Source: Arenicellales bacterium
GTDB taxonomy: Bacteria > Pseudomonadota > Gammaproteobacteria > Arenicellales > JAJDZL01
Direction: 5' to 3'
NCBI GenBank assembly: GCA_965219265.1
Contig: OZ244730.1
Location: forward strand, 1,653,529 to 1,717,528
Length of the DNA stretch: 64,000 bases
Positions 6,099 to 28,765 of the stretch are shown in pieces. Below the pieces are notes generated by a model. It did not search any database. It was not told the DNA's origin and worked only from the letters and a program-made list of their open reading frames with translations. The position numbers and the translations under genes are program-made. Numbering within the stretch: the stretch's first letter is position 1; each line of letters opens with the position of its first letter.

Positions 6099-7184
6099 GT
6101 GAGTTTGTATCAATTCCAAGACGCGTCTGGTGTGCTGCTCGATGCTCATTTCGAAGTACGGAACGGCAAGCTGTTCTTGCTGTCTCGAGGCGGTACCAAA
6201 GGCGCCGCAAACGCACGGAATACCCAATATGGCCCGGCATTGCGTATTCTTCTTGAACGAATCAATCAATCAGCTCTGAGTCTGGCCGGTGCGTGGGTCG
6301 ATAGTAGTCGAGTTCAACATTTAACGATGGGGGAAAGACGGATATTGTCGCCTGAAGAAACTGATGTTCCACCGACAAAGTTGTTCACATTATTATCAAG
6401 AAGAATGGCGAAAGTAGGACGTGACCCAAGAAGCCTTAGTCTCGGAAATTCCAACAAAAAACTCCGTTTCATTTTTACGGGAGGTGTATCAGATGAACAA
6501 ATTATCAGAATAGTTGGTTTAGGAGACTTTGGCGATAATTCAAACGGTCGTGGAAGGCTTTTAGCAGCAACTTTGAAGAAAGTTTCTGAAGATCATATCT
6601 GGCGTGCAATTCAACAGCTTCGCTCCGGATCGGTGAAGCATGTATTCGGTGAATTCACTGAATACGATGTTGTGGACCAAGATGTTGGAAAGCGCTGGCC
6701 GCCCAAAGCTATTTTCGGCTTGGCAGCAACCGAGGCTTTAGGGTTTGAGGTTAAACCGGAGCACTTTGAAAATGGCGTACGAACGATCTGCCACAAGAGC
6801 ATCATTCATGCTGGATTCCGCATCGTTAAAAAGAATCAGACTATCCAGTCGAAACAATTGCCGCTGAGTAGCGAAGAAAGAGAATGGGTGGAGGGACAAC
6901 CAAAAATGAAGCAGCATCTGCAGCGGGAACGGGGGGCAGGCATCTCACTGGAGAAAAAAGTGCAGTTCAAGCGTGAACATGGCAGACTGTATTGTGAAGA
7001 TTGTGGATTGGACCCAGTCAAAACCTATGGAGTTCAATTTGGCGAAGCCTGCATCGAAGTGCATCATGTAGTTCCTTTGGCAAAACTGCCACCAGGCTAC
7101 CGCACTAAACTAAGTGATTTAAAATGCCTGTGTGCAAATTGTCATAGGATCGAGCATCGCAGACTTGGAAAAGCCGAACTGTAA
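6099..7184 (+). CDS. McrA-like HNH endonuclease (unknown N-domain + ScoMcrA-head-like domain + HNH)
   Basis: C-terminal CEDC...IEVHH...CLCANCHRIEH; central HIWRAI..F...YD...RWPPKAIFGLA..GF resembles the ScoMcrA N-terminal head pattern. Confidence 0.8.
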   Translation: MSLYQFQDASGVLLDAHFEVRNGKLFLLSRGGTKGAANARNTQYGPALRILLERINQSALSLAGAWVDSSRVQHLTMGERRILSPEETDVPPTKLFTLLSRRMAKVGRDPRSLSLGNSNKKLRFIFTGGVSDEQIIRIVGLGDFGDNSNGRGRLLAATLKKVSEDHIWRAIQQLRSGSVKHVFGEFTEYDVVDQDVGKRWPPKAIFGLAATEALGFEVKPEHFENGVRTICHKSIIHAGFRIVKKNQTIQSKQLPLSSEEREWVEGQPKMKQHLQRERGAGISLEKKVQFKREHGRLYCEDCGLDPVKTYGVQFGEACIEVHHVVPLAKLPPGYRTKLSDLKCLCANCHRIEHRRLGKAEL

Positions 7185-17208: not shown

Positions 17209-20200
17209 ATGTATCGAGGCGGCATCGCCAATAAACTGGGAAACTTGTATGAGCAAGAGTGGGCAGTGCGCAACCTTCTCGAAGTTATTGCAGGCCGTGC
17301 AAACTCAATACGATACGAGGGTATTACGGAAGAATTTACCGGGTTCGAATTCGCGCTCCATCTACAGCACAACGTCGAGTGGCATCAGACAAAAGTTAAC
17401 GCTCCGAATGGAAATTGGACGTTAACCTCTCTAAAAAAAACAGGTGTGATGGATGCATTTAAATCCCGTTTGTCGGCAGATTTAACCGCGAAGTGCGTGT
17501 TTGTTTCTCAAGACCCATCCAATCAAATGCGGGAGCTCTGCAAAAATGTCGAAATCTCGAACAATTTGGATGAGTTCAAGAAGGCATTGTCCCAAAAGGA
17601 CACAGATACATTGAAAAATCTAACAGTCATTTGGAGTACTGATGAGAGTACTGCATACAAATGGTTGCGACGTTGTAAGTTCCGGACGGAATCTCGGGAA
17701 TCGATCATCGAATTCATCGACATGTTCGGTAAGCATTTACTACAAGGCAACGCTAACGTATTCGAAACCTTTTCAATTTATCTGCTCACAAACCTAAATG
17801 CAAGTATCACGACCGAAACCGTAAGAGAATGGGTCACCGAACATAGTCCTTTTAGGCTTCCGCCTTCTCTTGACACAACGCTTCATCAAAAAATTGATGA
17901 TGCCAACCAACAATATCTTTCAAGTTATATGCCCTTTGGCTTCGGGGGACAACAGATCCAAAGACCTGAATCCCAGTACGTTGCTGATGAAATTCTTTCT
18001 GCAAATGGGCCGTCCTTGATCATTCTGACAGGAGTTGCTGGCAGCGGAAAGTCAGGAATCGTTAGAGAAATTATGGTTGAATTGAAAAACCGAAATGTTC
18101 CTCACCTTGCATTCAGGATTGATCGTTACCTTTCCTACGCAACAAGAAACCAAATTGGCCGGGATCTTTTAGAGTGTGACCAAAGTCCAGTCAGTGCCTT
18201 GGAAACTCTGGCAAAAAACAAAACATCCGTCCTGATCATTGACCAAATTGATGTAGTGAGCGAAACATCCGGACGAACAGGTGCCGTCAAGGATGTCTTA
18301 TTAGAGCTTGTCCGGGAAGCTGAACACTATGGCGATGTCAGATGTCTTTTAGTCTGTCGCAGTTTCGATCTAGAAAATGATCCGCAATACCGAATTCTCG
18401 AAAAGATGGATAGGGCTAAGCAGGTACAAGTTCCACACCTGTCTTGGAAAAGCGATGTCGCGCCTATTCTTGAAAATACTGGAGTTGTGATAGACAGATT
18501 AAACGAAAGCCAACGAAAATTACTGACACTTCCAGTCAATCTTTCCGTCTTTCTCAAAATTGACGAGTCTAACTTGGATTTCACTACCACCACAGATTTA
18601 TTGCAAGAACTGCTAGACAAGAAAATCCGTGATCTTCAAGCGAACCGCAATGTCGCATGGAATACTATGAAACCATTGTCCGCTATGGCAGATTGGATGA
18701 GCGAACACCAAGAACTGAGTTGCCCAGACTTTGTTTTGAATGAATATGACCAATCAAAAGAATGGTTAGCTTCAGAAGGCTTGATTATTGTTGAGCAAAA
18801 CAAACTGGCATTCTTTCATGAAAGTTTTTTCGATTTCATCTTTGCGCGAACTTTCGCAAATTCAACCCAAAACATCTCCGACTTCCTTACTACGACGGAG
18901 CAGCATCTCTTTCGACGCACTCAAGTGAGGCAAATCCTAACCTTAATGCGGGATACCGGTGGACCCCGTTACTCGGAAGCTCTGACTAGCATTTTGACTA
19001 CTCCCAACATTCGGTTCCACATAAAACTCGCCGTTGCACAGTGGTTAGCCACGCTCGACAACGTCACGGTGGAGGAACTAAGAGTTATACAGATGCTTGA
19101 CGATGACGGTGCGGAGTTTCCAGTCCTAATGCGAAATGCAATCTTCACATCGGAGTCTTGGTTCGATCTTCTGAACGACATTGGAGAACTTTTCAACATG
19201 CTTGAGAAATTGGAGAAACCACGACGCCGTCAATTGCTTGTGTGGTTGAGCAGGATCATCGGCAAACACCCACTATTTGTGGCGGAACTCCTGAAAAACT
19301 GGTGGGACAGCAATCCCGCACGACGAGATGAAATAATCGAGTGGTTCGACTTCGTGTCCCCAATTCCTGTAGATCAAGTGTTGACTGCTCTGTTATACGA
19401 CGTAGTGCGTTCTGCGCCTGAAAATTTCCTATCTCGCATCAAATGGAACAAGATAGTAGCACATGTACTTGACCTGTGCGTGGTGAATCCCGAAGCATCC
19501 TCGAAAATCTTGCAGTTGCTGTTAGCGGAATGGTTCAAGCGTAATCCTGGCGAACATTTGTTCACACACGACGGAATGGGAGAAATCGATTTATTGGATC
19601 TTGATCGCTTAGCAGAAAAGGCACCACCGGTCTTCTTAAATTGCATGATTCCAGCACTTGTAAATTCCATCCAAATTGCTGTGAGCGATAGTAGCCCCAG
19701 TTCACAATTCCATGTTCTTTACAGAACTAGTACCGGAAGGGGCCCCAATAAACTCTTTTCCCTTTTTCGTGATGCGTTGCAGACTCTCGCTAAAACGTTA
19801 CCCCAAGAAGCTGAATCGTATCTGGGCCAACTCGACCCGAAGCTTCATGAAGCGTTGCTACATCTGCATCTGGAAACGATTCAGACGAATCCAACCGCTT
19901 TGGGATATCGTTTTGCGGCATTGCTCAACGAGCGGTATCTTTTTTCAGCTGGGCTGGAACAGGTCGAATGGTTGTCGTTTGCTGAAACAGCGCGAAAGGT
20001 TGTCGAAGCGGGATGCCTGTCCATCCAGACCGTTGAGAAACGGATATTTCGTCATCAACCAGAGATTGAGTCAGCACGGGGTATACTACATGACATAAAA
20101 AAGAAAGGAGAGACAAACTCCATTTGGGAAAGGCGTGATGTTGTAGTTAGATTGTCGAATTCTGGGCGTGTTCAATGGTATGTGCTAAGGTCAATCGGAC

Positions 20201-21756
20201 ACAACCTTCTTTCACCATCCGGCAAGAAAAGATTGTTGGAGTTAGAACGAAAATTTCACGCCGAGGTTGTTCCGGTCCCACATACTTACGAAGCCAAACG
20301 GGTTGGTTCACCGATTCCGACTCCCGTTGCCCGTAGAATGACAGACAGTCAATGGTATTCCGCTATTAATAAACATGTGGAAAGTAATTCGACATCATTT
20401 CTCGTAGACGGGAAAGTTGTCGGTGGAGCATTGCAATTAGCGCAAGAGTTGGACGAACTTACCGCATCCGATCCAAACCGGTTTGCGCAATTTTTTCTGG
20501 GATTACCCGAGATCTCCAATCCAGCATACGGTCGGTCTTTGCTTCAAGGGCTGACTCGTGCTGAACATCTGGACGAGATTGCAGTGATTTCGGTTCTTTG
20601 CAAGGCTCATGAAAATCCAAATCGACCATTCGGACTGCAAATTGTCCGACTTCTTGAGCGCCATCCAGTTTATGCGCGAGACAGCAATGTTTTTGCGGTA
20701 TTGCTTTGGTACGCAGAACACGGCGATGCAAATGAGACAATATTTGCCAGCGACAGAGAACAACTAGGATCGTTGCCCTCAATTGATGAACTTAGTCGTG
20801 CCAGCAGTTCTCTGATTAGCAACGGGATAAACTCGGCCCGCGGAGTCGCTTGGATTAGCTTAGGGCGGTTGGTTCAAAACAATCCGCAACGTGTCGCAGA
20901 TATCTGGAATCTTCTTGAGCGCCGGGCGTATGAAGAGACCTACCCCTGGGTGCGGGCTATGATGGTTTATACACTGTCTGCACTCTACAGTCTCGATCTG
21001 ACTCGGTTCAGCAAGTGTCTTCACCTTCTCACAAAAGCTATTTCTGGTGAACGGGACGAAGTCTCTTCCTTAGCACCGTTAACAACTGATTACGGCATCC
21101 GTCTTTACCATCACATCGAGCGCGACTTCCCGAGCATGGCGTTGGAATTGATGGGGAGAATGATTGGCTCGGAGGACAGGAGAATTCATTTGATAGGGTC
21201 ATGGTGGACGCTAGCCGAAAGGTTGCGGCAGGGCAACTCAAAGAACAATTTCCCGCTGATTGAGCAAGAGTCACCTGCCCATTCTAAACTTTGGGCGTCA
21301 ATTCTTTGCGAGTTTGTTGCAAGTACCGAATTCAGGAATCTAGCAACTTCAGAGCTTGAAAGGCTATTTTTTCATGAATCCTCCGAGGTAAGAAAGGAGG
21401 CTGGAAATGTATTCTCGCACTTTCCAAACGACGAATTTCCTTCCTTTAAGGATTTGGCGAGAAAATTCGTACGTTCTCCTGCATTCAAGGACTCCACTTA
21501 TTCATTTTTTACGGTGTTGACAAAGACAACCTGCGATGTCTCCGAACTTGTCATTGAGGCAGTTGAAATTGTTGTTTACAAATGGAAAAACTACGGGTTG
21601 ATTTCCGCCCTTAACATACAGAATATTCTAAAAAGGGAATATGTTAACACTGAAAGTCTGCCAGAGCTTCGCACTAAAGTTCTAAATCTATTTGATTACA
21701 TGGCTGAAAATAGTGTGATTGGAGTGGATGATGTCATGGGGATGGATGATCGATAG
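17209..21756 (+). CDS. PD-(D/E)xK-like nuclease - STAND NTPase - helical repeat protein (Avs-like antiphage sensor)
   Basis: N-terminal GGIANKLGNLYE..W, FEF..WHQTK; Walker A GVAGSGKS; Walker B LIIDQID; FFHESFFDF STAND motif; long helical C-terminus. Confidence 0.8.
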   Translation: MYRGGIANKLGNLYEQEWAVRNLLEVIAGRANSIRYEGITEEFTGFEFALHLQHNVEWHQTKVNAPNGNWTLTSLKKTGVMDAFKSRLSADLTAKCVFVSQDPSNQMRELCKNVEISNNLDEFKKALSQKDTDTLKNLTVIWSTDESTAYKWLRRCKFRTESRESIIEFIDMFGKHLLQGNANVFETFSIYLLTNLNASITTETVREWVTEHSPFRLPPSLDTTLHQKIDDANQQYLSSYMPFGFGGQQIQRPESQYVADEILSANGPSLIILTGVAGSGKSGIVREIMVELKNRNVPHLAFRIDRYLSYATRNQIGRDLLECDQSPVSALETLAKNKTSVLIIDQIDVVSETSGRTGAVKDVLLELVREAEHYGDVRCLLVCRSFDLENDPQYRILEKMDRAKQVQVPHLSWKSDVAPILENTGVVIDRLNESQRKLLTLPVNLSVFLKIDESNLDFTTTTDLLQELLDKKIRDLQANRNVAWNTMKPLSAMADWMSEHQELSCPDFVLNEYDQSKEWLASEGLIIVEQNKLAFFHESFFDFIFARTFANSTQNISDFLTTTEQHLFRRTQVRQILTLMRDTGGPRYSEALTSILTTPNIRFHIKLAVAQWLATLDNVTVEELRVIQMLDDDGAEFPVLMRNAIFTSESWFDLLNDIGELFNMLEKLEKPRRRQLLVWLSRIIGKHPLFVAELLKNWWDSNPARRDEIIEWFDFVSPIPVDQVLTALLYDVVRSAPENFLSRIKWNKIVAHVLDLCVVNPEASSKILQLLLAEWFKRNPGEHLFTHDGMGEIDLLDLDRLAEKAPPVFLNCMIPALVNSIQIAVSDSSPSSQFHVLYRTSTGRGPNKLFSLFRDALQTLAKTLPQEAESYLGQLDPKLHEALLHLHLETIQTNPTALGYRFAALLNERYLFSAGLEQVEWLSFAETARKVVEAGCLSIQTVEKRIFRHQPEIESARGILHDIKKKGETNSIWERRDVVVRLSNSGRVQWYVLRSIGHNLLSPSGKKRLLELERKFHAEVVPVPHTYEAKRVGSPIPTPVARRMTDSQWYSAINKHVESNSTSFLVDGKVVGGALQLAQELDELTASDPNRFAQFFLGLPEISNPAYGRSLLQGLTRAEHLDEIAVISVLCKAHENPNRPFGLQIVRLLERHPVYARDSNVFAVLLWYAEHGDANETIFASDREQLGSLPSIDELSRASSSLISNGINSARGVAWISLGRLVQNNPQRVADIWNLLERRAYEETYPWVRAMMVYTLSALYSLDLTRFSKCLHLLTKAISGERDEVSSLAPLTTDYGIRLYHHIERDFPSMALELMGRMIGSEDRRIHLIGSWWTLAERLRQGNSKNNFPLIEQESPAHSKLWASILCEFVASTEFRNLATSELERLFFHESSEVRKEAGNVFSHFPNDEFPSFKDLARKFVRSPAFKDSTYSFFTVLTKTTCDVSELVIEAVEIVVYKWKNYGLISALNIQNILKREYVNTESLPELRTKVLNLFDYMAENSVIGVDDVMGMDDR

Positions 21757-21825
21757 TCTGATTCTACTTACTCCTCAAAAAACTAAACGCATGAAGCAAG
21801 CCAATAGTACTGGAAATTCAATCGG

Positions 21826-21911
21826 AAATGTTGCGGAATAGATTATGTTGCGAGTATTAGTTATCGCGCTGAAATCAAATTGATAGTTTTTGAAACTCGC
21901 AACATAATTTT
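21826..21911. repeat. Outer RIT left inverted repeat (86 bp)
   Basis: 83/86 identical to reverse complement of 28606-28691; contains ttatgttgcg motifs. Confidence 0.9.
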
Positions 21912-21961: not shown

Positions 21962-23212
21962 ATGTTCGAAACAATTTTTTCGCGTCCTTGCACGATTGCG
22001 ATTCATCAAGCGGCACCTTTGTATGAAGAAAGATGCCGATATCTGTTACGCCATGCACAAAGTGGCGCAACTGCGGATACGTTGCGCGCAATAGCGCATG
22101 ACCAACTGAGCCTGATCAATCATCTGAATCTGCAAGCGAACCAAAGAATCAGTGTTCGCCAGATCGAGGATGCTGCCAGCGATTGGCTGAATGGATTTGT
22201 ACAGCGTTTCGGCCACGAACCTTCGCTCAAAAGAAGGAAACGATTTATCCATTGCGCACGCAACTGGCTGCGTTTTATTGGGTGGTTAAGCGAGTCGAGA
22301 TTGTCTCGTCATCGTTATGAAGCCGAAGTTTCCATGTTCAACACATTCGCACAACAGCAATGTGGCCTTTCTGACGCATACGTCAACTCTATTTGCAATG
22401 TTGCCGATCGGTTTTTTGAGTGGCTGGAGCAACATGGTCTGAGTCTGGATGAGCTGCGTCTGAGCGACATCGATGAGGCATTGGTGAGCGACCGGATCTT
22501 TGGTCAATGCAGTCGTAACACAACCAAAACACAGATCAATTGCCTGGGCAGGTTCCTTCGCTATGCAGAACAACAACGCTGGTGCGTGGCAGGGTTGGCC
22601 GACGGCATCAAGCCGCCACGGATGTTCCCGAATGAGACGATTCCAATGGGGTTGGGCCGAGATGAGGTGTTGAAATTGCTGGCCACGACCGAAAGCGATC
22701 GTGCGATCGACAAACGTGATCGGGCAATATTAATGGTGTTGAGCACTTATGGGTTGAGATCCAGCGAGGTGTGTGGTTTGACACTTGATGACCTGAGCTG
22801 GACCGATGAGCTTTTGACGGTCCGTCGCTGCAAGAGCGGACAAATCCACATTTATCCATTGTCACAAGCGGTCGGGGAGGCAATTGTCAGGTATCTTCGC
22901 GAGGTCCGTCCTTTGGTTCGACAACGGACATTGTTCCTGACGATGAATGCACGGCGCGGCCCGATCACCAGGCAAGGCGTTTATATGATGGTCGTTGGAC
23001 GGTTGAAAAAAATTGGCATCGCTGGCAAAGGCAAGGATCCGCATGCACTGCGTCACGCAGCGGCTCAACATCTGCTTGAGCACAATCAATCGATGAAAGT
23101 GATCGCAGACTATCTCGGACACCGTAATGTAGACTCGGCTTCGGTCTATGCCAAGATTAATCTGAACCAATTGCGAGAGGTTGGCGATGTCAGCCTGGAG
23201 GGGTTGATATGA
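21962..23212 (+). CDS. ritA: Tyrosine recombinase RitA (outer)
   Basis: GLRSSEV, HALRH, LGHRNVDSASVYA; GGGGAG RBS. Confidence 0.9.
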   Translation: MFETIFSRPCTIAIHQAAPLYEERCRYLLRHAQSGATADTLRAIAHDQLSLINHLNLQANQRISVRQIEDAASDWLNGFVQRFGHEPSLKRRKRFIHCARNWLRFIGWLSESRLSRHRYEAEVSMFNTFAQQQCGLSDAYVNSICNVADRFFEWLEQHGLSLDELRLSDIDEALVSDRIFGQCSRNTTKTQINCLGRFLRYAEQQRWCVAGLADGIKPPRMFPNETIPMGLGRDEVLKLLATTESDRAIDKRDRAILMVLSTYGLRSSEVCGLTLDDLSWTDELLTVRRCKSGQIHIYPLSQAVGEAIVRYLREVRPLVRQRTLFLTMNARRGPITRQGVYMMVVGRLKKIGIAGKGKDPHALRHAAAQHLLEHNQSMKVIADYLGHRNVDSASVYAKINLNQLREVGDVSLEGLI

Positions 23213-23957
23213 AACTTCACCAGGCAATCGAGCGCTACATCGCATGGCGACGCATTCACGGTGCGAAGTTCAAAGCCGGCGCACAGCATCTGCGACAGTT
23301 CTCAAATTCGGTCGAGCGGGATATCGACTGCAAGGCAGTTTCCCAGAGCGAAGTTTGCAGATTTCTTGCGGGAAACCGACCGCTGACCAAAACGCGGTCC
23401 CATCGTTACAGCGCACTGCGAGGGTTTTATCGCTATGCTATCGCTCGAGGCTACACCACGCTGTCGCCTTTGCCCGACCCGGATCAGGAACCGAGACCAC
23501 CGCAATCAAAATTGCCTCATGTTTTCAGCCCTGATCAACTGCAGCGCATGTTTGGCACGATCGATCAGTGTCACAGCCGTCGCTCCAAACTCGATGCATT
23601 CACGTTCCGCACCTTGCTGCTATTGCTTTGTGGCAGTGGGTTGCGCATCGGTGAGGCTCTTCAACTCACGCTGACCGACATCAATCTGCAAAACACGGTC
23701 TTGACAGTGAGAGACAGTAAATTCTACAAAAGCCGGCTGGTGCCAATTGGACCTCAACTGAATGCGCTGCTCAGTGCATATGCCAAACAACGTGTGAAGC
23801 GAACGCTGTCGAACGGAAAAAATTCAACTTTTCTAGCCTATATCGATGGCTCGGCGTTAACCTATAAAACAGTTGATATGGCTTTTTCCAAATTGAGAGA
23901 CGCCGTGCCACTGTGTGTAATCGACCGCTTTCATCAGCGCCCAACCTTGCACAGTTT

Positions 23958-23993
23958 TCGTCATTATCTCGGGTACATTTTTATCTCGGGTAA
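23958..23993. repeat. Inner RIT left inverted repeat incl. core tcgtca (36 bp)
   Basis: Perfect reverse complement of 27354-27389; two ttatctcggg motifs. Confidence 0.95.
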
Positions 23994-24082
23994 ATTAGAT
24001 ACTGCATTGTTTTTCAGATAGATAGCACGTCTTTACACGACATAATCGAAGCTTCTTTTTTACATCAAATCAGGAGTTCGAT

Positions 24083-25327
24083 ATGAAGTATTTCACAGAC
24101 GATCAACATGTTGTACACCAAAGCTGGCTCATCGGTCCATTGGCTGGCTGGCTTGTTTCATTTGCGAAATGGCTGTGTGCAAAGGGTTATGCGGCCCGCA
24201 CAATCGATGAGAAGGTACGGCTGATTTCCGGATTCAGCCTGTGGCTGAAAGAAGAGGCAATCGAAGTGGCTGACATCACACTGAACCATCTCAATCAATA
24301 CCTGCAGTATCGGCGGCAACGCCGGACCTCAAATAGAAGAGGCGAAAAACGCACACTTGAGCAATGCATGGCTTTTCTACAGCAGAAAGGCCAGATTCTC
24401 TCCGCTGCGCTGCCTGAAGAGCCGAAGACTTCGGTCGAATTGCGCATGCAGTCCTATGAAGGCTATTTGCGACATGTTCGTGGCCTGGCACCGACGACGA
24501 TTGCATCATATCTGACATTTGTCAGAAGTTTTCTGCAGCATTGTTTCGCCTCAGAGAACGTTACCCTTTCGCGTCTGTCGTCTCAAGATGTTGTGGAATT
24601 TGTTCAACAGCAGGCACCGCGGCTGCATCCCAAAAGAGCAAAGCAAATGTCCACTGCACTGAGATCATTTCTTCGGTATGCCTGTTACCTTGGAGAGACG
24701 GGCTTGGAATTAGTCGGCGCAGTCCCTTCATCGGCCAACTGGCAGATGCTCAGCATCCCGCGAGGGATCTGTACGGAGCAGGCCGAAAAACTGCTGGCCA
24801 GCATTCATCGCGATACCGCTGCAGGCCGACGCGACTATGCCATTGTGATGCTGTTTGCACGGCTGGGACTTCGGGTGAGCGAGGTTCAGCGGCTCCGTTT
24901 CGATGACATTGACTGGGTCAACGGGACCTTGCGGCTGCAAACAAAAGGCAAAAAGTGCAGAACTGTACCACTGACTGAGGAGCTTGGCGAAGCGATTGTC
25001 GATTACCTGTGTCACGGGCGCCCGAAGTGTGCGAGCCGTCATGTGTTTGTGCGCGCGCAAGCTCCGGTTGAGGAATTCCGCAACGTTTCCAGCATATGCG
25101 CAATCATTGGTCGTGCGATCGCACGTGGCGGCATTGTCGCACCGACAAATGGGACGCACCAGTTCCGTCACGGGTTAGCCATACAGATGCTGCGCAGAAA
25201 ACTGTCGCTGGAACAGATCGGCGATGTTCTGGGGCACTCCCACCCCGACACGACCCGAATCTACGCCAAGGTCGATTTGGAAGCTTTGCGTTCACTGGCC
25301 CTTCCTTGGCCGGGAGGCGTCGAATGA
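24083..25327 (+). CDS. ritA: Tyrosine recombinase RitA (inner)
   Basis: GLRVSEV, HQFRH, LGHSHPDTTRIYA; AGGAG RBS. Confidence 0.9.
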   Translation: MKYFTDDQHVVHQSWLIGPLAGWLVSFAKWLCAKGYAARTIDEKVRLISGFSLWLKEEAIEVADITLNHLNQYLQYRRQRRTSNRRGEKRTLEQCMAFLQQKGQILSAALPEEPKTSVELRMQSYEGYLRHVRGLAPTTIASYLTFVRSFLQHCFASENVTLSRLSSQDVVEFVQQQAPRLHPKRAKQMSTALRSFLRYACYLGETGLELVGAVPSSANWQMLSIPRGICTEQAEKLLASIHRDTAAGRRDYAIVMLFARLGLRVSEVQRLRFDDIDWVNGTLRLQTKGKKCRTVPLTEELGEAIVDYLCHGRPKCASRHVFVRAQAPVEEFRNVSSICAIIGRAIARGGIVAPTNGTHQFRHGLAIQMLRRKLSLEQIGDVLGHSHPDTTRIYAKVDLEALRSLALPWPGGVE

Positions 25328-26274
25328 ATACACTTCGCGAAGCCATCCACGAATATATTGAAATGCGCCGTCATCTTGGATTCAAACTGAAGCAGGATTG
25401 TCGCCTGCTGCATCAGTTTGCCAGTTTCATGGAACAGCACGAGAAGCCGTTCATCACAGTTGAGCTGGCGGTGCGTTGGGCTCAGCAGCCCCACGATGCG
25501 CAGCTGGCATGGTGGGCGAAACGATTGAGCGTTGTGCGCGTGTTTGCGCGCCATCGCAAGGCGACCGATCCGCGCACTGAAATTCCGCCTTGTGAGCTGC
25601 TGGCAGTTCAACCCAAGCGGGCAAAGTCCTATCTGTATTCAGATCAACAGATCTGCGACCTGCTGCAAGCGGCCCGGAAGATGCCCTGCTCGTATGAACA
25701 GACTTCTTTGCGTCCATGGATTTATCATTGCCTTTTCGGTCTGCTTGCCGTCTCTGGAATGAGGGTGGGAGAGGTGTGTAATCTTGAGGTTCGAGATGTC
25801 GATCTTGACGCGGCAGTTTTAACGATACGCAACGCCAAATTCGGCCGCGACCGTCTGATTGCGCTGCACCGTTCAACCTGCGATGTCATTGCCGATTACA
25901 TCGCTCGACGCGAGCGCCACTGGCGAGGTCGCTGCGTGTCGTCCTATCTATTTGTTTCGAGCCGTGGAAACAGAATCGATCCTTCTGACATCAACCGCAC
26001 ATTCCACAAACTGTCACGGCAGATTGGACTTCGCGGCGAAACCGACGGTCACTGTCGCAGGCCGCGCGTCCATGACTTGAGGCATTCATTCGCGACAAAA
26101 GTTTTAGCGCTGGGGTATCGGAACCATGAGAATCCAGAATGGACTGTGCCGATTCTATCAACTTGGCTCGGTCATGTGAAGATTGCAGATACGCAATGGT
26201 ATCTGCAAGCCTCGCCGCAGCTCCTGGATGAAGCCATGCGCCGGCTCGAAACTCGATGGGAGAACCAGTCATGA
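25324..26274 (+). CDS. ritB: Tyrosine recombinase RitB (inner)
   Basis: MNTLREAI start at ATGA overlap; GMRVGEV, HDLRH, LGHVKIADTQWYL. Confidence 0.9.
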   Translation: MNTLREAIHEYIEMRRHLGFKLKQDCRLLHQFASFMEQHEKPFITVELAVRWAQQPHDAQLAWWAKRLSVVRVFARHRKATDPRTEIPPCELLAVQPKRAKSYLYSDQQICDLLQAARKMPCSYEQTSLRPWIYHCLFGLLAVSGMRVGEVCNLEVRDVDLDAAVLTIRNAKFGRDRLIALHRSTCDVIADYIARRERHWRGRCVSSYLFVSSRGNRIDPSDINRTFHKLSRQIGLRGETDGHCRRPRVHDLRHSFATKVLALGYRNHENPEWTVPILSTWLGHVKIADTQWYLQASPQLLDEAMRRLETRWENQS

Positions 26275-27293
26275 CCTGCTCAACTAGTCTTGCTCCGATT
26301 CTTGAGCGGTTTTTCATTCAGCGTCTGACCAATCAGCGCCAGGCGAGCCCGCACACGATCAAATCGTACAGCGATACCTTTCGCCTCCTGCTGGGATTTG
26401 TTGAGCGGCGTCTTCAACTGGAACCGTCGAAACTTCAATTTGAGCACATTGACGCGAGGATCGTTACGGATTTCCTTGAGGAATTGGAAACGCTGCGCAA
26501 GAACAGCGTGCGCAGCCGCAACCAGCGGCTTGCGGCGATTCATTCTTTTTTTCGTTATGCCGCCTTTGAACTGCCGATGCATGCGCAGCAGATCCAAAGC
26601 GTGCTTGCGATTCCGAGTAAACGCTGCACGCGCAAGCAGATCAGTTTTCTCAGCCGTCAGGAGGTCGATGCGCTGCTGGCCGCACCGAATGCGAAAACCT
26701 GGTCTGGGCGCCGTGATCACGCGTTCATTCTCACTGCTGTGCAAACCGGCTTTCGGCTCAGCGAAATGACGGCGCTGAGGCGCAGCGACTTGGTCGATTC
26801 GGGTGGTTATAACCTGTGCGTTGTCGGCAAAGGACGAAAGGAACGTCGCACGCCTTTGGCTAAAGCGACCCGAAAAGTACTGAACAAATGGATTCAGGAA
26901 CCGCCGCGTGGTACGCAAGGCATTCTCTTTCCCAGCGCAAAAGGAAATCGCTTGGGTGTCGACGCAGTGCAAGATCTGTTGAATAAGCATCGCAAGACCG
27001 CCTCATATCAGTGTCCATCACTGGCTGACAAGCGAGTATCCGTACATCTGCTGAGACATACAGCAGCCATGGAACTTCTTCAGGCAGGAATCGACCGGTC
27101 TGTGATCGCACTTTGGTTGGGACACGAGCGTCTCGAAACCACCCAAATTTATATTGAGGCAACGCTCGCGATGAAAGAGCAGGCACTGGCCAAGACATCG
27201 CCGCGAGAAGGAAATGGGCAACGATACCAACCGCCTGACAGACTGATGACTTTTCTGAGCAATCTCGGGAGGCCTGCGGATTATCTCGGGTAA
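26271..27293 (+). CDS. ritC: Tyrosine recombinase RitC (inner)
   Basis: GFRLSEM, GKGRK, HLLRH, LGHERLETTQIYI; ATGA overlap. Confidence 0.9.
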   Translation: MTCSTSLAPILERFFIQRLTNQRQASPHTIKSYSDTFRLLLGFVERRLQLEPSKLQFEHIDARIVTDFLEELETLRKNSVRSRNQRLAAIHSFFRYAAFELPMHAQQIQSVLAIPSKRCTRKQISFLSRQEVDALLAAPNAKTWSGRRDHAFILTAVQTGFRLSEMTALRRSDLVDSGGYNLCVVGKGRKERRTPLAKATRKVLNKWIQEPPRGTQGILFPSAKGNRLGVDAVQDLLNKHRKTASYQCPSLADKRVSVHLLRHTAAMELLQAGIDRSVIALWLGHERLETTQIYIEATLAMKEQALAKTSPREGNGQRYQPPDRLMTFLSNLGRPADYLG

Positions 27294-27353
27294 TTTCAAC
27301 GCAAGGGGCAGATGTTCTGCATGAAATCTGCCCTTTAGCGTACTCGCAAACCG

Positions 27354-27415
27354 TTACCCGAGATAAAAATGTACCCGAGATAATGACGATTATCTCGTTA
27401 ACGAGATAATCGTCA
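27354..27415. repeat. Inner RIT right IR plus perfect 32-bp palindrome (27384-27415)
   Basis: tgacgattatctcgttaacgagataatcgtca is its own reverse complement. Confidence 0.95.
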
Positions 27416-27603
27416 CACATTTGCGGTTCATCGGCTAACCGACTGGTATCGCCAAGGTGCTGACGTTCAACGTCTGTTGCCGCTGCTGTCAAACTATCTC
27501 GGACACAGCAGTCTGCAAAGTACGCAGATTTATTTGTCCGTGACACCGCAGTTGCTACAGCACACTTCGGTGCTGTTCAACCAATACGTAAACGGAGATC
27601 ATC

Positions 27604-28599
27604 ATGAATAAGCTACCCATGTTAAGTCCTTGGTTGCGGCGGTTTTTTACTGAACACATCAGCACCGAACGCAATTTAGCGGTGAATACCCGCAAAAGTT
27701 ATCGCGACACCTTCGTGATGCTGTTGCCCTACATAGCCACCCATTCCCGAAAATCGGTGGAACGGCTGTTAATTAGCGATATCACAGCACAGCGTGTGCT
27801 GGGGTTTCTCAATCACATCGAAACCGAGCGCGGCTGCACCGCGCAAACTCGCAACCAGCGCTTGAGCGCCATACGGGTGTTTACTCGCTACGTATGCAGC
27901 CGCAATCCCGCCTGTGTCGAGTGGGCCGGCAGCCTGCGTGCCATTGTCAACAAAAAGACCCGACCTGGACAGGTTTCGTGGCTGACCAAAGATCAAATCG
28001 AGTCGATCTTGGAGGTGCCCAATACCCGAAAATTCAGAGGCCGAGTCGAGTACGCACTGCTGCTGTTTCTCTATAACACAGGCGCTCGTGTGTCGGAGGC
28101 TATCGGATTGAGCGTCAGCAACCTTCAATTCGGCCAAAATAACGGGCGCCACGCCCTGGCCACCATCATGGGCAAAGGCGGCAAACTGCGCCAATGTCCG
28201 CTTTGGCCACGTACCGAAAAGGCGCTTCTTGAGTTGGTTGACAATAAACTCGACAGCGCCCCGGTGTTTGTAAGTCAACTGGGACAATCCTACACCCGTT
28301 TTGGAGTCTATCGGTTAGTGCAACGGTGCGCTGCCGCAGTTCCTGAACTGTCACAGCGGAACATCACACCGCATGTGATGCGACACAGTTGCGCCTGCCA
28401 TTTGCTTCGCGCCGGTGTCGACCTTAACACCATCCGATCATGGCTCGGTCACGTAAGTCTTGATACCACCAATATCTATGTCGCCATTGACCTGGATATG
28501 AAAGTTGATGCGATGCGAATTTGTGATACTGTGGAGATAAAATCGCCACCAAGCTGGAAGCAGGACACCAAGACAATGGCCTTCCTTAATTCACTGTGA
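27604..28599 (+). CDS. ritC: Tyrosine recombinase RitC (outer)
   Basis: GARVSEA, GKGGK, HVMRH, LGHVSLDTTNIYV. Confidence 0.9.
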   Translation: MNKLPMLSPWLRRFFTEHISTERNLAVNTRKSYRDTFVMLLPYIATHSRKSVERLLISDITAQRVLGFLNHIETERGCTAQTRNQRLSAIRVFTRYVCSRNPACVEWAGSLRAIVNKKTRPGQVSWLTKDQIESILEVPNTRKFRGRVEYALLLFLYNTGARVSEAIGLSVSNLQFGQNNGRHALATIMGKGGKLRQCPLWPRTEKALLELVDNKLDSAPVFVSQLGQSYTRFGVYRLVQRCAAAVPELSQRNITPHVMRHSCACHLLRAGVDLNTIRSWLGHVSLDTTNIYVAIDLDMKVDAMRICDTVEIKSPPSWKQDTKTMAFLNSL

Positions 28600-28605
28600 G
28601 TGTGA

Positions 28606-28719
28606 AAAATTATGTTGCGAGATTCAAAAACTATCAATTTGATTTCAGCGCGATAACGAATACTCGCAACATAATCAATTCCGCAACATTTTCGATTTTA
28701 TGTTGCATGCAACATAAAA
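28606..28719. repeat. Outer RIT right IR (28606-28691) plus perfect 24-bp palindrome (28696-28719)
   Basis: ttttatgttgcatgcaacataaaa palindrome follows the IR. Confidence 0.9.
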
Positions 28720-28765
28720 CCGGCAGTGACAATATGATGCGCCAGATGTTTACAAAACAATCCAA

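Follow-up and report, generated by a model that had tools for sequence, protein, structure and literature searches.

How does one transposable element come to lie within the catalytic codons of another element's recombinase, and was it placed there by chance? The question is raised by a RIT element found inside the ritB gene of a second RIT in the window (the whole 64,000-nucleotide stretch of DNA that was analysed). To our knowledge, nobody has shown since 2009 how RITs move or where to. Comparison with relatives makes it highly probable that the inner RIT transposon is active, or was so until very recently, and that it is site-specific for the H-x-[LFIVM]-R-H codons of other tyrosine recombinases.

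The inner RIT is complete and occupies positions 23964-27415 of the window (3452 bp, ~3.45 kb). It starts with TTATCTCGGG directly after TCGTCA (23958-23963) of outer ritB. At its right end, ...CGAGATAA is followed by a second TCGTCA (27410-27415), and the host restarts with C ACA TTT GCG at 27416. The element comprises the following features:

23964-23993, plus strand: left inverted repeat containing a pair of 12-bp direct repeats, TTATCTCGGGTA, spaced 17 bp (repeat families D5 and I2)
24083-25327, plus strand: inner ritA, 414 aa, HQFRH...LGH...IY (PF00589 and SAM-like domains; member of the large ~412-aa family)
25324-26274, plus strand: inner ritB, 316 aa, HDLRH...LGH...WY, ATGA overlap with ritA (gene call in L001)
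26271-27293, plus strand: inner ritC, 340 aa, HLLRH...LGH...IY, ATGA overlap with ritB (gene call)
27281-27296, plus strand: a further directly oriented copy, the fifth, of the 12-bp repeat, lying within the ritC 3′ end (family D5; shared by the two genome copies) and perhaps serving as an accessory binding site
27354-27383, plus strand: right inverted repeat (pair I2, 100% complementary)
27384-27389, plus strand: internal 6-mer TGACGA, the reverse complement of TCGTCA
27390-27409, strandless: 20-nt palindrome TTATCTCG-TTAA-CGAGATAA, mimicking the left and right repeat tips (pair I9; with a counterpart in relatives, always on the host-3′ side)
27410-27415, plus strand: Y6, the element-carried right-hand 6-mer TCGTCA (the same Y6 is found at copy 2, where the native 6-mer is CAGGCA)

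This layout has the hallmarks of a RIT. Three intact, adjacent and co-directional PF00589 genes (414, 316 and 340 aa) encode tyrosine recombinases of distinct subfamilies, with ritA the longest, and their frames are joined by short overlaps (4-8 bp in RITs), here ATGA at 25324-25327 and 26271-26274. The R...HxxR...H/W...Y residues are present, by sequence, in all three proteins, and the Pfam matches span profile positions 2-169 of 172. The inner RitA, RitB and RitC are only ~24-30% identical to each other, and each has its nearest match in the corresponding outer RIT gene; in relatives, a RitA of ~412 aa is always followed by genes of ~314 and ~332 aa. The size (~3.4-3.5 kb), the inverted repeats and a palindrome beside ritC also agree. 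That the unit is mobile is indicated by 100% identical copies in two hosts within the genome and by a third host in a metagenome locus (L002).

The terminal inverted repeats are perfect over 36 nt, or 30 nt without the 6-mers. The earlier note had missed TGACGA and the 20-nt palindrome, together TTATCTCGTTAACGAGATAA (27384-27409), which separate the right inverted repeat from the second TCGTCA; a perfect 32-nt palindrome results when the flanking 6-mers are counted in. Judging by its layout (right repeat tip, 6 bp, palindrome arm), TGACGA is the spacer of a second, opposite core site. The palindrome is not a fresh copy of the repeat tips: it differs from them in several relatives (for example, TTATGTCG versus TTATCTCG in the e3 element) and is thus a conserved part of the element. 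Neither is it a target sequence, being absent from empty sites.

The interrupted host is itself a RIT, with the following features:

21820-21911, plus strand: left end, with 6-mer AATCGG (21820-21825) followed by the left inverted repeat, in which ATGTTGCG occurs twice (92 nt, with 96% complementarity to 28606-28697)
21962-23212, plus strand: outer ritA, 416 aa, intact, HALRH...LGH...Y (PF00589, E=3.7e-30)
23209-23963, plus strand: 5′ part of outer ritB, 252 codons and CA of the His codon (restored frame; PF00589 profile positions 3-146 of 172 only)
23958-23963, plus strand: X6, the target 6-mer TCGTCA (T of TTT, CGT for Arg, CA of His), native host sequence (empty sites in L113-L116 read TTTTCGTCACAC) and presumed crossover region
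27416-27611, plus strand: 3′ part of outer ritB (C ACA TTT GCG ... stop), encoding His-III and the catalytic Tyr (restored frame)
27604-28599, plus strand: outer ritC, 331 aa, intact (PF00589, E=2.3e-29)
28606-28723, plus strand: right end, with the inverted repeat to 28691, 6-mer TCGATT (28692-28697), palindrome TTATGTTGCATGCAACATAA (28698-28717) and 6-mer AACCGG (28718-28723), as read from the sequence

The layout of this right end matches that of the inner RIT. At the left junction outer ritB reads ...CTT GCA CAG TTT TCG TCA, so that the inner RIT indeed follows cac-agt-ttt-cgt-ca, as had been described; the called open reading frame of the 5′ part continues into the inner repeat, to 24021. 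The earlier note had also stated that removal of the inner element gives a 951-nt frame. Taking out 3452 bp joins 23209-23963 to 27416-27611 in exactly such a frame (316 aa, HSFRH...LGH...QIY), and the product aligns colinearly with inner RitB across the junction. The predicted empty site exists in nature: four metagenome contigs (L113-L116) carry the uninterrupted outer RIT at 99.2-99.6% nucleotide identity, and all read CTTGCACAGTTTTCGTCACACATTTGCGG. The related contigs belong to ENA metagenome assemblies (samples ERZ25069191, LUOR22-1 series).

A second inner RIT, 100% identical to the first, is located 176 kb away, at the same codon of another RIT, which shares only 67% DNA identity, and 48% identity of the RitB protein, with the first host. 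The genome has no outer-type RITs but these two, and in each the identical codon is interrupted, the rest of the element being fully intact. The second of them interrupts an IS4-family transposase gene inside its Y-R-E-K signature. A transposase gene spanning the insertion site of the window's own outer RIT was considered as well and rejected, as no open reading frame was restored there, in contrast to the site of the second outer RIT.

The insertion strips His-III and the catalytic Tyr from outer RitB, and precise excision would restore the gene, with CACAGTTTTCGTCACACA and CACAGCTTC[AGG/..]CACACT as predicted restored ritB alleles. Could the nesting then be functional, with the inner RIT acting as a reversible switch or domesticated regulator of outer RitB by insertion, excision or inversion? 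The intactness of both outer RITs would fit such a role, as would the coexistence in related samples of occupied and empty alleles that are >99% identical, and the architecture appears invertible. Moreover, excision with either 6-mer gives an intact frame in the 44 complete events of the survey described below (protein unchanged in 38, 1-2 residues beside the motif differing in the other 6). However, the empty alleles may simply be ancestral, inversion of the interior leaves ritB broken, and the fact that many unrelated hosts are treated alike is in keeping with selfish hyperparasitism and no regulatory role. On the available sequences we consider a switch unlikely.

We surveyed relatives of the inner RIT at 79 named genome loci and at metagenome loci, which yielded 76 elements with usable flanks. 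H-x-x-R-H codons adjoin 62 of these elements (RitA of ~412 aa, many phyla), corresponding to 58 unique junctions against ~0.08 expected (P ~1e-160). The frequency of the 14-nt coding motif is so low (2.7e-4 per position in the genome, 5.4e-4 in the surveyed loci) that the placement is not by chance. Each of the 58 unique junctions splits the same His codon after its second base, and in 44/44 complete events the fused flanks again encode ...H-x-x-R-H-[STA]-x-A... in frame. Target conservation is confined to the first and second codon positions. The regular expression used for the motif has seven positions fixed and two more restricted, which makes the target logo partly circular at those positions; it has no bearing on T at -7 or on GC at +8/+9. 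Copy 2 at the same codon and these junctions bear out the proposal that the inner RIT uses a recombinase motif as its target. The copies do not sit in unrelated targets with only a random hexamer in common; it is the codon motif that is shared, and not the hexamer.

Each of the 39 host fragments that are 90 aa or longer matches PF00589, and their mutual identity is only ~17-25%. These hosts are tyrosine recombinases, in agreement with the suggested parasitism of other mobile elements. The e2 element (59% RitA identity) lies directly after CGN-CA of H-x-x-R-H codons at 8/9 places in six distinct host genes, which are RitA-, RitB- and RitC-like. The same DNA motif is also hit in non-recombinase genes, for example in an IS91 Y2 transposase (FHRIRH). 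About 14 of the 76 elements are without the motif, some being located at near-motifs (AAC ATT CGG CA, CTT CGT GA, TTA AGC CA). As to the extent of the group, 550 relatives of one RIT clade were counted in one-genome-per-species data, alongside >3000 protein clusters. A single RitA protein used as query of genome contigs returned no relative, while the family alignment used as query did; the inner palindrome had no exact match among JGI metagenome contigs.

At least ten other H-x-x-R-H sites in the genome are vacant, including those of xerC/xerD-like genes, of outer ritA and ritC and of the element's own genes. The motif is therefore not sufficient: either the inner RIT is choosier, or selection purges such insertions. 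The latter could be taken further, by assuming low-specificity insertion (for example, at any CGNCA) with only the insertions in dispensable mobile-element genes persisting. The vacant sites would be expected in that case, some insertions do lie outside recombinase genes, and hosts are nearly always other mobile elements. Selection may set the gene, but not the nucleotide: 58 junctions lie at the same point of a His codon in hosts ~20% identical, polarity is fixed, and no insertion was seen elsewhere within those dispensable genes. Survivorship as the source of the pattern is quite improbable.

Insertions are polar with respect to the host gene. The palindrome was found on the host 5′ side in 0/62 cases and always on the 3′ side, while the trio is oriented either way relative to the host (32:24). 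Palindrome-less insertions exist (L003, L014) and some elements lie between two 5′ gene parts; these cases are counted against the model presented here. All three 6-mers end in CA in 43/44 events and reassort freely. The internal 6-mer ends so when reverse-complemented (42 with G at the third position), like target 6-mers, the lone exception being the e2 element (GAGCTA).

The two flanking 6-mers proved to be of different origin. At copy 2 the left 6-mer is CAGGCA and the right one is TCGTCA, identical to the left flank of copy 1. A natural empty site of the copy 2 host is available (L117) and contains only CAGGCA; since CAGGCA is native there, the right-hand TCGTCA of copy 2 was imported by the element. 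Thus, the left 6-mer (N-CGN-CA) is the native target, and the right one is imported and has the same form. The imported 6-mer is identified directly in this one event (copy 2 versus L117); for e2, taking the right 6-mer as the imported one is the more parsimonious reading of the sequences. The donor for copy 2 would have been the insertion in the outer RIT's ritB or an identical one of that type.

TCGTCA had been taken for a duplication, which would correspond to staggered-cut transposition with a 6-bp target-site duplication. The window copy, with TCGTCA on both sides, invites this interpretation, and X6 equals Y6 in 19/44 complete events. The claim fails, since X6 differs from Y6 in the other 25/44 and copy 2 has CAGGCA and TCGTCA where the empty site has CAGGCA alone. 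In addition, the element encodes only tyrosine recombinases, which make no fill-in duplications. A target-site duplication is accordingly very improbable. The string cgagataa-tcgtca-ttatctcg, put forward as diagnostic of a circle, is already present in the chromosome at copy 2 and therefore cannot prove one. An artefact, through misassembly or homologous recombination between related rit genes, could appeal to the truncated genes in the RIT 'mazes' known from pHG1 and other plasmids (PMC2864759) and to rearranged flanks at some loci (L024, L028), but is hardly credible for a genome in a single 3.18-Mb contig, with junctions that recur in an independent metagenome assembly (L001) and lie at inverted-repeat tips outside homologous gene segments, and with exact empty sites.

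We propose that the inner RIT clade (RitA ~412 aa) integrates by tyrosine-recombinase site-specific recombination. The target would be a degenerate polar site, 5′-CAY NNN NTN (CGN/AGR) CA|Y, encoding the box II motif H-x-[LFIVM]-R-H, and other RITs, IS91-associated integrases and similar genes would be the usual victims. The junction position is exact and the polarity fixed, with the palindrome host-3′. The 6-mer would serve as the crossover (overlap) region. The element would exit as a circle whose joint consists of right repeat, 6 bp, palindrome, 6 bp and left repeat, a single long palindrome that contains two core sites in mirror image. Either the choice of core site, or inversion between the left junction and the internal site, may account for the trio lying either way round. 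The donor's left flank is the likely source of the joint 6-mer, in the manner of Tn554 and SE elements. This 6-mer would always encode x-Arg-Hi and so keep homology with the next H-x-x-R-H target, a kind of 'target memory'.

A broader reading, slightly less likely than not, is that RIT lineages in general are 'hunters' of other mobile elements, each clade homing into the best conserved and catalytically constrained codons of their recombinases or transposases. The 6-bp overlap, copied from the previous victim, would be a target memory that is inherited, and the joint with its palindromic double core would permit either orientation. If true, the genome would present a three-level food chain, in which the Y-R-E-K codons of an IS4-family transposase are cut by an outer-type RIT and its ritB is cut at H-x-x-R-H by the inner RIT.

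RIT elements are widespread, and their target is now defined with precision and polarity as the box II Arg-His codons, with a 6-mer as the presumed crossover, together with evidence of donor-flank transfer and of a two-faced palindromic joint. The question of RIT movement thereby becomes approachable by simple plasmid-to-plasmid assays. The site choice is a clear case of hyperparasitism among mobile elements, rival recombinases being disabled where mutation costs them activity. Other RITs, IS91-type elements and islands that bear integrases may spread less as a result. Nested RITs probably underlie many of the genes annotated as 'truncated integrase' and many rit 'mazes' (e.g. that of pHG1).

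The element agrees with RITs as described (Van Houdt et al. 2009/2012, PMC3414803; Janssen et al. 2010, PMC2864759) in the A-B-C trio of distinct subfamilies, the ATGA overlaps, the size of ~3.4-3.5 kb, the ~30-bp terminal inverted repeats and the occurrence of identical copies within a genome. Those descriptions give no target site; they record single insertions in radC, an IS66 tnpA and a Tn6049 transposase, as well as rit genes arranged in an unexplained 'maze' on pHG1 (PMC2864759). Target specificity and movement of RITs are called 'not tested' in PMC10214605, according to which RIT transposition has never been reproduced in the laboratory. A full-text literature search, whose reach did not extend to Ricker et al. 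2013 (Plasmid 70:226), returned no account of RITs targeting recombinase genes. Beyond those descriptions, the clade-wide H-x-x-R-H codon target, the polarity and the behaviour of the 6-mers are defined here.

Like the inner RIT, Tn554, SE and GInt elements use several tyrosine recombinases and are site-specific without true target duplication. The 6-bp donor-flank rule described for SE and Tn554 (PMC10214605) has its counterpart in the 6-bp donor-flank sequence carried along here without target duplication (copy 2; 25/44 events). The gene sets differ: Tn554 has TnpA/TnpB/TnpC, SE has IntA/Tfp/IntB/Srap and GInt has GinABCD, and the RitABC trio occurs in none of them. In place of tnpA, tnpB and tnpC the inner RIT has three tyrosine recombinase genes and no further open reading frame in 3.45 kb; it carries rit genes only, with no counterpart of Tfp/GinC or Srap/GinD and no cargo. 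Tn554 is not known to carry terminal inverted repeats, and its insertions at att554 in radC all have one orientation. RITs, unlike Tn554, have inverted repeats and a junction palindrome, an interior that lies either way, and other targets.

Homing endonuclease genes, inteins and group II introns offer an analogy only: they also occupy active-site codons, a target that is hard to mutate. In contrast to them, the chemistry of the inner RIT is tyrosine recombination, no splicing rescues the victim, and the victims are recombinases of mobile elements. Tn7-like and IS elements likewise use other mobile DNA as a safe haven, sparing the host chromosome and producing nested elements as seen here. Those elements, however, are guided by structures or proteins (replication forks, attTn7) or duplicate their target, whereas the inner RIT reads a short coding motif of its own enzyme family.

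Six consecutive tyrosine-recombinase genes were found in the window by ORF listing and Pfam, and a repeat search revealed inverted repeats nested as two pairs, with an outer RIT around an inner RIT.

Features of the nested RITs in the window
21962-28599, plus strand: the six tyrosine-recombinase genes
21820-21911 and 28606-28697: inverted repeat pair of the outer RIT, 92 nt, 96%
23958-23993 and 27354-27389: inverted repeat pair of the inner RIT, 36 nt, 100%
23209-23963 and 27416-27611, plus strand: the two parts of outer ritB

In outer ritB, the second gene of its trio, the Pfam integrase profile match ends at position 146 of 172. The gene reads CAC AGT TTT CGT CA up to the left junction, where the inner repeat TTATCTCGGG... 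begins directly; at the right junction, outer ritB resumes with C ACA TTT GCG after ...CGAGATAA TCGTCA. Rejoining the two parts yields a 951-nt frame for 316 aa with HSFRH...LGH...QIY, and the restored protein aligns colinearly with inner RitB through the join. The earlier note had described the split ritB and its restored frame, and our reading of the junctions and of the rejoined frame agrees with it in every detail. The 3452-bp insert carries ritA, ritB and ritC (414, 316 and 340 aa) with ATGA gene overlaps, and HxxRH, LGH and the C-terminal Tyr are kept in all three proteins; the inner element is in every structural respect a RIT. A gene for a 1515-aa NACHT/STAND ATPase (17209-21756) ends 64 bp before the left end of the outer RIT, and the surroundings of the RIT pair look like a defence and mobile-element island.

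The right end of the inner RIT has an order that had been overlooked: the right repeat is followed by TGACGA, the reverse complement of TCGTCA, then by a 20-nt palindrome (TTATCTCG-TTAA-CGAGATAA) whose halves mimic the first 8 bases of both repeat tips, and then by TCGTCA. The end of the outer RIT is built alike (right repeat, TCGATT, TTATGTTGCATGCAACATAA, AACCGG). A palindrome beside ritC was mentioned, uninterpreted, by Van Houdt et al. 2012 (PMC3414803).

The window sits in a single 3.18-Mb contig (C1), and BLAST of the insert against the genome revealed a second, 100% identical copy at C1:1853397-1856850. Its host is a different outer-type RIT (67% DNA and 44-60% protein identity to the outer RIT of the window), interrupted at the homologous codon: CAC AGC TTC AGG CA, then the element, then C ACT TTT GCT. 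A search of the genome identified only these two RITs of the outer type, both occupied, along with two single xer-like genes as the other tyrosine-recombinase matches; a later motif scan flagged a handful of additional candidate integrase genes. Copy 2, unlike copy 1, has its trio inverted with respect to the host gene, yet in both copies TGACGA, the palindrome and TCGTCA are found on that gene's 3′ side. The flanking 6-mers of copy 2 are CAGGCA on the left and TCGTCA on the right, with no hexamer duplication.

Natural empty sites were found for both hosts. A protein search identified an intact 316-aa protein with 98% identity to restored outer RitB, and in four fetched loci (L113-L116) the whole outer RIT is uninterrupted at 99.2-99.6% nucleotide identity; the empty site there is CTTGCACAGTTTTCGTCACACATTTGCGG, exactly as predicted, with one TCGTCA. 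L117 contains an intact relative of the copy 2 host (99% protein, 94% nucleotide identity) with the site CTGCACAGCTTCAGGCACACTTTTGC. Thus, the left 6-mer of copy 2 is the target's own, while the right one was imported by the element. The imported TCGTCA is the native left-flank 6-mer of copy 1, and from its sequence the probable donor of copy 2 is an insertion of the copy-1 type. The interpretation of TCGTCA as a target duplication has to be abandoned, since copy 2 is flanked by CAGGCA and TCGTCA with CAGGCA native in L117, and since the left and right flanking 6-mers (X6 and Y6) differ in 25/44 events of the survey described below. The junction string cgagataa-tcgtca-ttatctcg, proposed as a test for the circle, is already chromosomal at copy 2.

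The inner RitA family is very large (proteins of ~412 aa; more than 3000 clusters at E<1e-30). For a related element with 59% RitA identity, e2, nine genomic places were fetched; in eight of them (six distinct host genes, RitA-, RitB- and RitC-like) it comes right after CGN-CA of H-x-x-R-H codons, and the ninth (L005) has the palindrome on the left and a right flank without the motif. L014 has a RIT whose ritB is interrupted by a second RIT from the same clade, and further relatives are inserted in IS91-associated integrases. We retrieved 79 loci from named genomes by family alignment, spanning Bryobacterales, Paracoccaceae, Arenicellales, Paraburkholderia, Caballeronia, Cupriavidus, Ralstonia, Methylomicrobium, Acidobacteriota and others. 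A script located inverted-repeat pairs 3380-3450 bp apart, and their flanks were then read.

Target survey in the retrieved loci
Elements with usable flanks: 76
Elements abutting CAY-N6-(CGN/AGR)-CA: 62
Unique motif junctions: 58
Motif frequency per position in these loci: 5.4e-4
Chance expectation of motif flanks: ~0.08
Binomial P: ~1e-160

As an informal control, a looser run supplied 11-mer repeat pairs that had arisen by chance, and the motif was rare among them. All host fragments of at least 90 aa (39/39) match the Pfam integrase family, being mutually only ~17-25% identical, and joining the flanks brings ...H-x-x-R-H-[S/T/A]-x-A... back in frame in 44/44 unique two-flank events. Information in the target logo is confined to the first two codon positions, and the search pattern did not include T at -7 or GC at +8/+9. 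The same DNA motif occurs in a few non-recombinase targets (FHRIRH of an IS91 Y2 transposase, AAC ATT CGG CA at the end of a PIN gene, and TTA AGC CA), indicating that recognition takes place at the DNA level. The earlier note's proposal of a conserved recombinase motif as target therefore holds clade-wide, with 62/76 elements abutting it, and parasitism of other mobile elements is likewise supported across the clade, the hosts including other RITs and IS91-associated integrases.

Among the complete events, every combination of equality was found between X6, Y6 and the internal 6-mer, which lies between the right repeat and the palindrome. In 43/44 events CA forms the end of X6, of Y6 and of the reverse-complemented internal 6-mer, the sole exception being the e2 internal 6-mer GAGCTA, and G occupies the third position in 42. 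Identical e2 copies have few Y6 values, which match X6 of other copies and again appear consistent with import from a donor. The palindrome was never found beside the 5′ part of the host gene (0/62), and the trio takes both orientations relative to that gene (32 vs 24).

In the simplest reading of these sequences, the element would form a circle whose joint (right repeat, 6-mer, palindrome, 6-mer, left repeat) is one long palindrome, predicted to be perfect and 92 bp long for the inner RIT. Such a joint would carry two mirror-image core sites, each consisting of two inverted arms around a 6-bp spacer, and integration via either of them would place the palindrome on the 3′ side, with the orientation of the trio set by the site used. 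The outcome would be the same if the segment between the left junction and the internal site inverted once the element had integrated, and this fits the orientation data equally well. We infer that the 6-mer serves as the overlap region, that circles form and that the internal site is used.

Several arrangements depart from the common one. L003:697-4111 and the outer element in L014 (6875-13730) have no internal 6-mer and palindrome; the former is a variant of the inner RIT (92.6% identical) with the host site and 6-mers of copy 2 in opposite orientation. In L024, L069, L085, L088, L089 and L093, elements without a palindrome lie between the 5′ parts of two different recombinase genes, both of which break off at H-x-x-R-H codons; such arrangements resemble the outcome of an inversion or recombination involving two targets or two element copies. 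Together, the two groups point to further recombination among the sites. In L032 and L033 (8040-8200 in both), a short RIT-like unit without genes interrupts the ritC of another RIT. This unit has TAATGCCGAG at its tips, contains the palindrome TAATGCCGAGCTCGGCATTA and two 11-bp repeats with a spacing of 17 bp, and may be a non-autonomous (MITE-like) RIT derivative. Contigs of 3404-3427 bp starting and ending exactly at RIT repeat tips are common in assemblies (for example L019, L060, L066, L078, L106); we rejected them as evidence for circles, since assemblers usually leave such contigs when they collapse a multi-copy repeat.

A transposase gene of the IS4 family (DUF4372 and DDE_Tnp_1) hosts the second outer-type RIT (C1:1852091-1858990), which splits the Y-R-E-K signature between its E and K (...LYRSRWQVELFF/KWIKQHL...). 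The rejoined flanks form an open frame of 421 codons (388 aa when counted from the first ATG) matching the whole DDE_Tnp_1 profile, and a 94%-identical RIT occupies the same spot of a related transposase (L117:1392-4840). The nesting is three-level: IS, then RIT, then RIT. At C1:~1865306-1865353, with no rit genes nearby, a solo outer-RIT palindrome TTATGTTGCATGCAACATAA is embedded in a longer, perfect palindrome of 48 nt (GTCAGTT-CCGATT-palindrome-AATCGG-AACTGAC). This could be the footprint left by an outer-type RIT, but also a landing pad or the product of a hairpin. The same heptamer, AACTGAC or CAGTGAC, comes after the flanking 6-mer of the outer RIT (AATCGG/AACCGG) in each of four distinct genomic contexts.

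Positions of the shared heptamer
Window 28718-28735
L113:3575-3620
L114:3575-3620 and 7030-7080
L115:40-85

This leaves two readings: the outer-type RIT selects a specific target sequence of its own, or its mobile unit extends beyond the palindrome.

The motif alone is insufficient for insertion: this genome has 185 loose matches, and ~10 H-x-x-R-H sites in its recombinase genes, including the element's own and the xer-like genes, are unoccupied. Selection against xer-gene insertions and a narrower preference of this element are both plausible. Excision with either 6-mer leaves an intact frame, the protein being unchanged in 38/44 events and differing by one or two residues in 6, and both outer RITs are otherwise intact. 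A reversible off-switch, as the inner RIT had been interpreted, is thus possible in principle; selfish hyperparasitism, however, explains the data.

Listed RIT insertions include radC, IS66 tnpA and the Tn6049 transposase, along with a 'maze' of rit genes on pHG1 (PMC3414803, PMC2864759); we found no definition of a RIT target in these two papers. A 2023 review lists target specificity, empty site and movement of RITs as not tested, and states that RIT transposition has not been reproduced (PMC10214605). The target site, its polarity, the 6-mer transfer and the proposed double-core joint are new for a known kind of element. This genome contributes an identical pair of copies, one in each orientation, that fills both of the hosts available there, a native 6-mer identified directly from natural empty sites, and three-level nesting at Y-R-E-K codons. 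Although its gene content excludes membership in the Tn554 and SE families, the inner RIT resembles both in its 6-bp behaviour.
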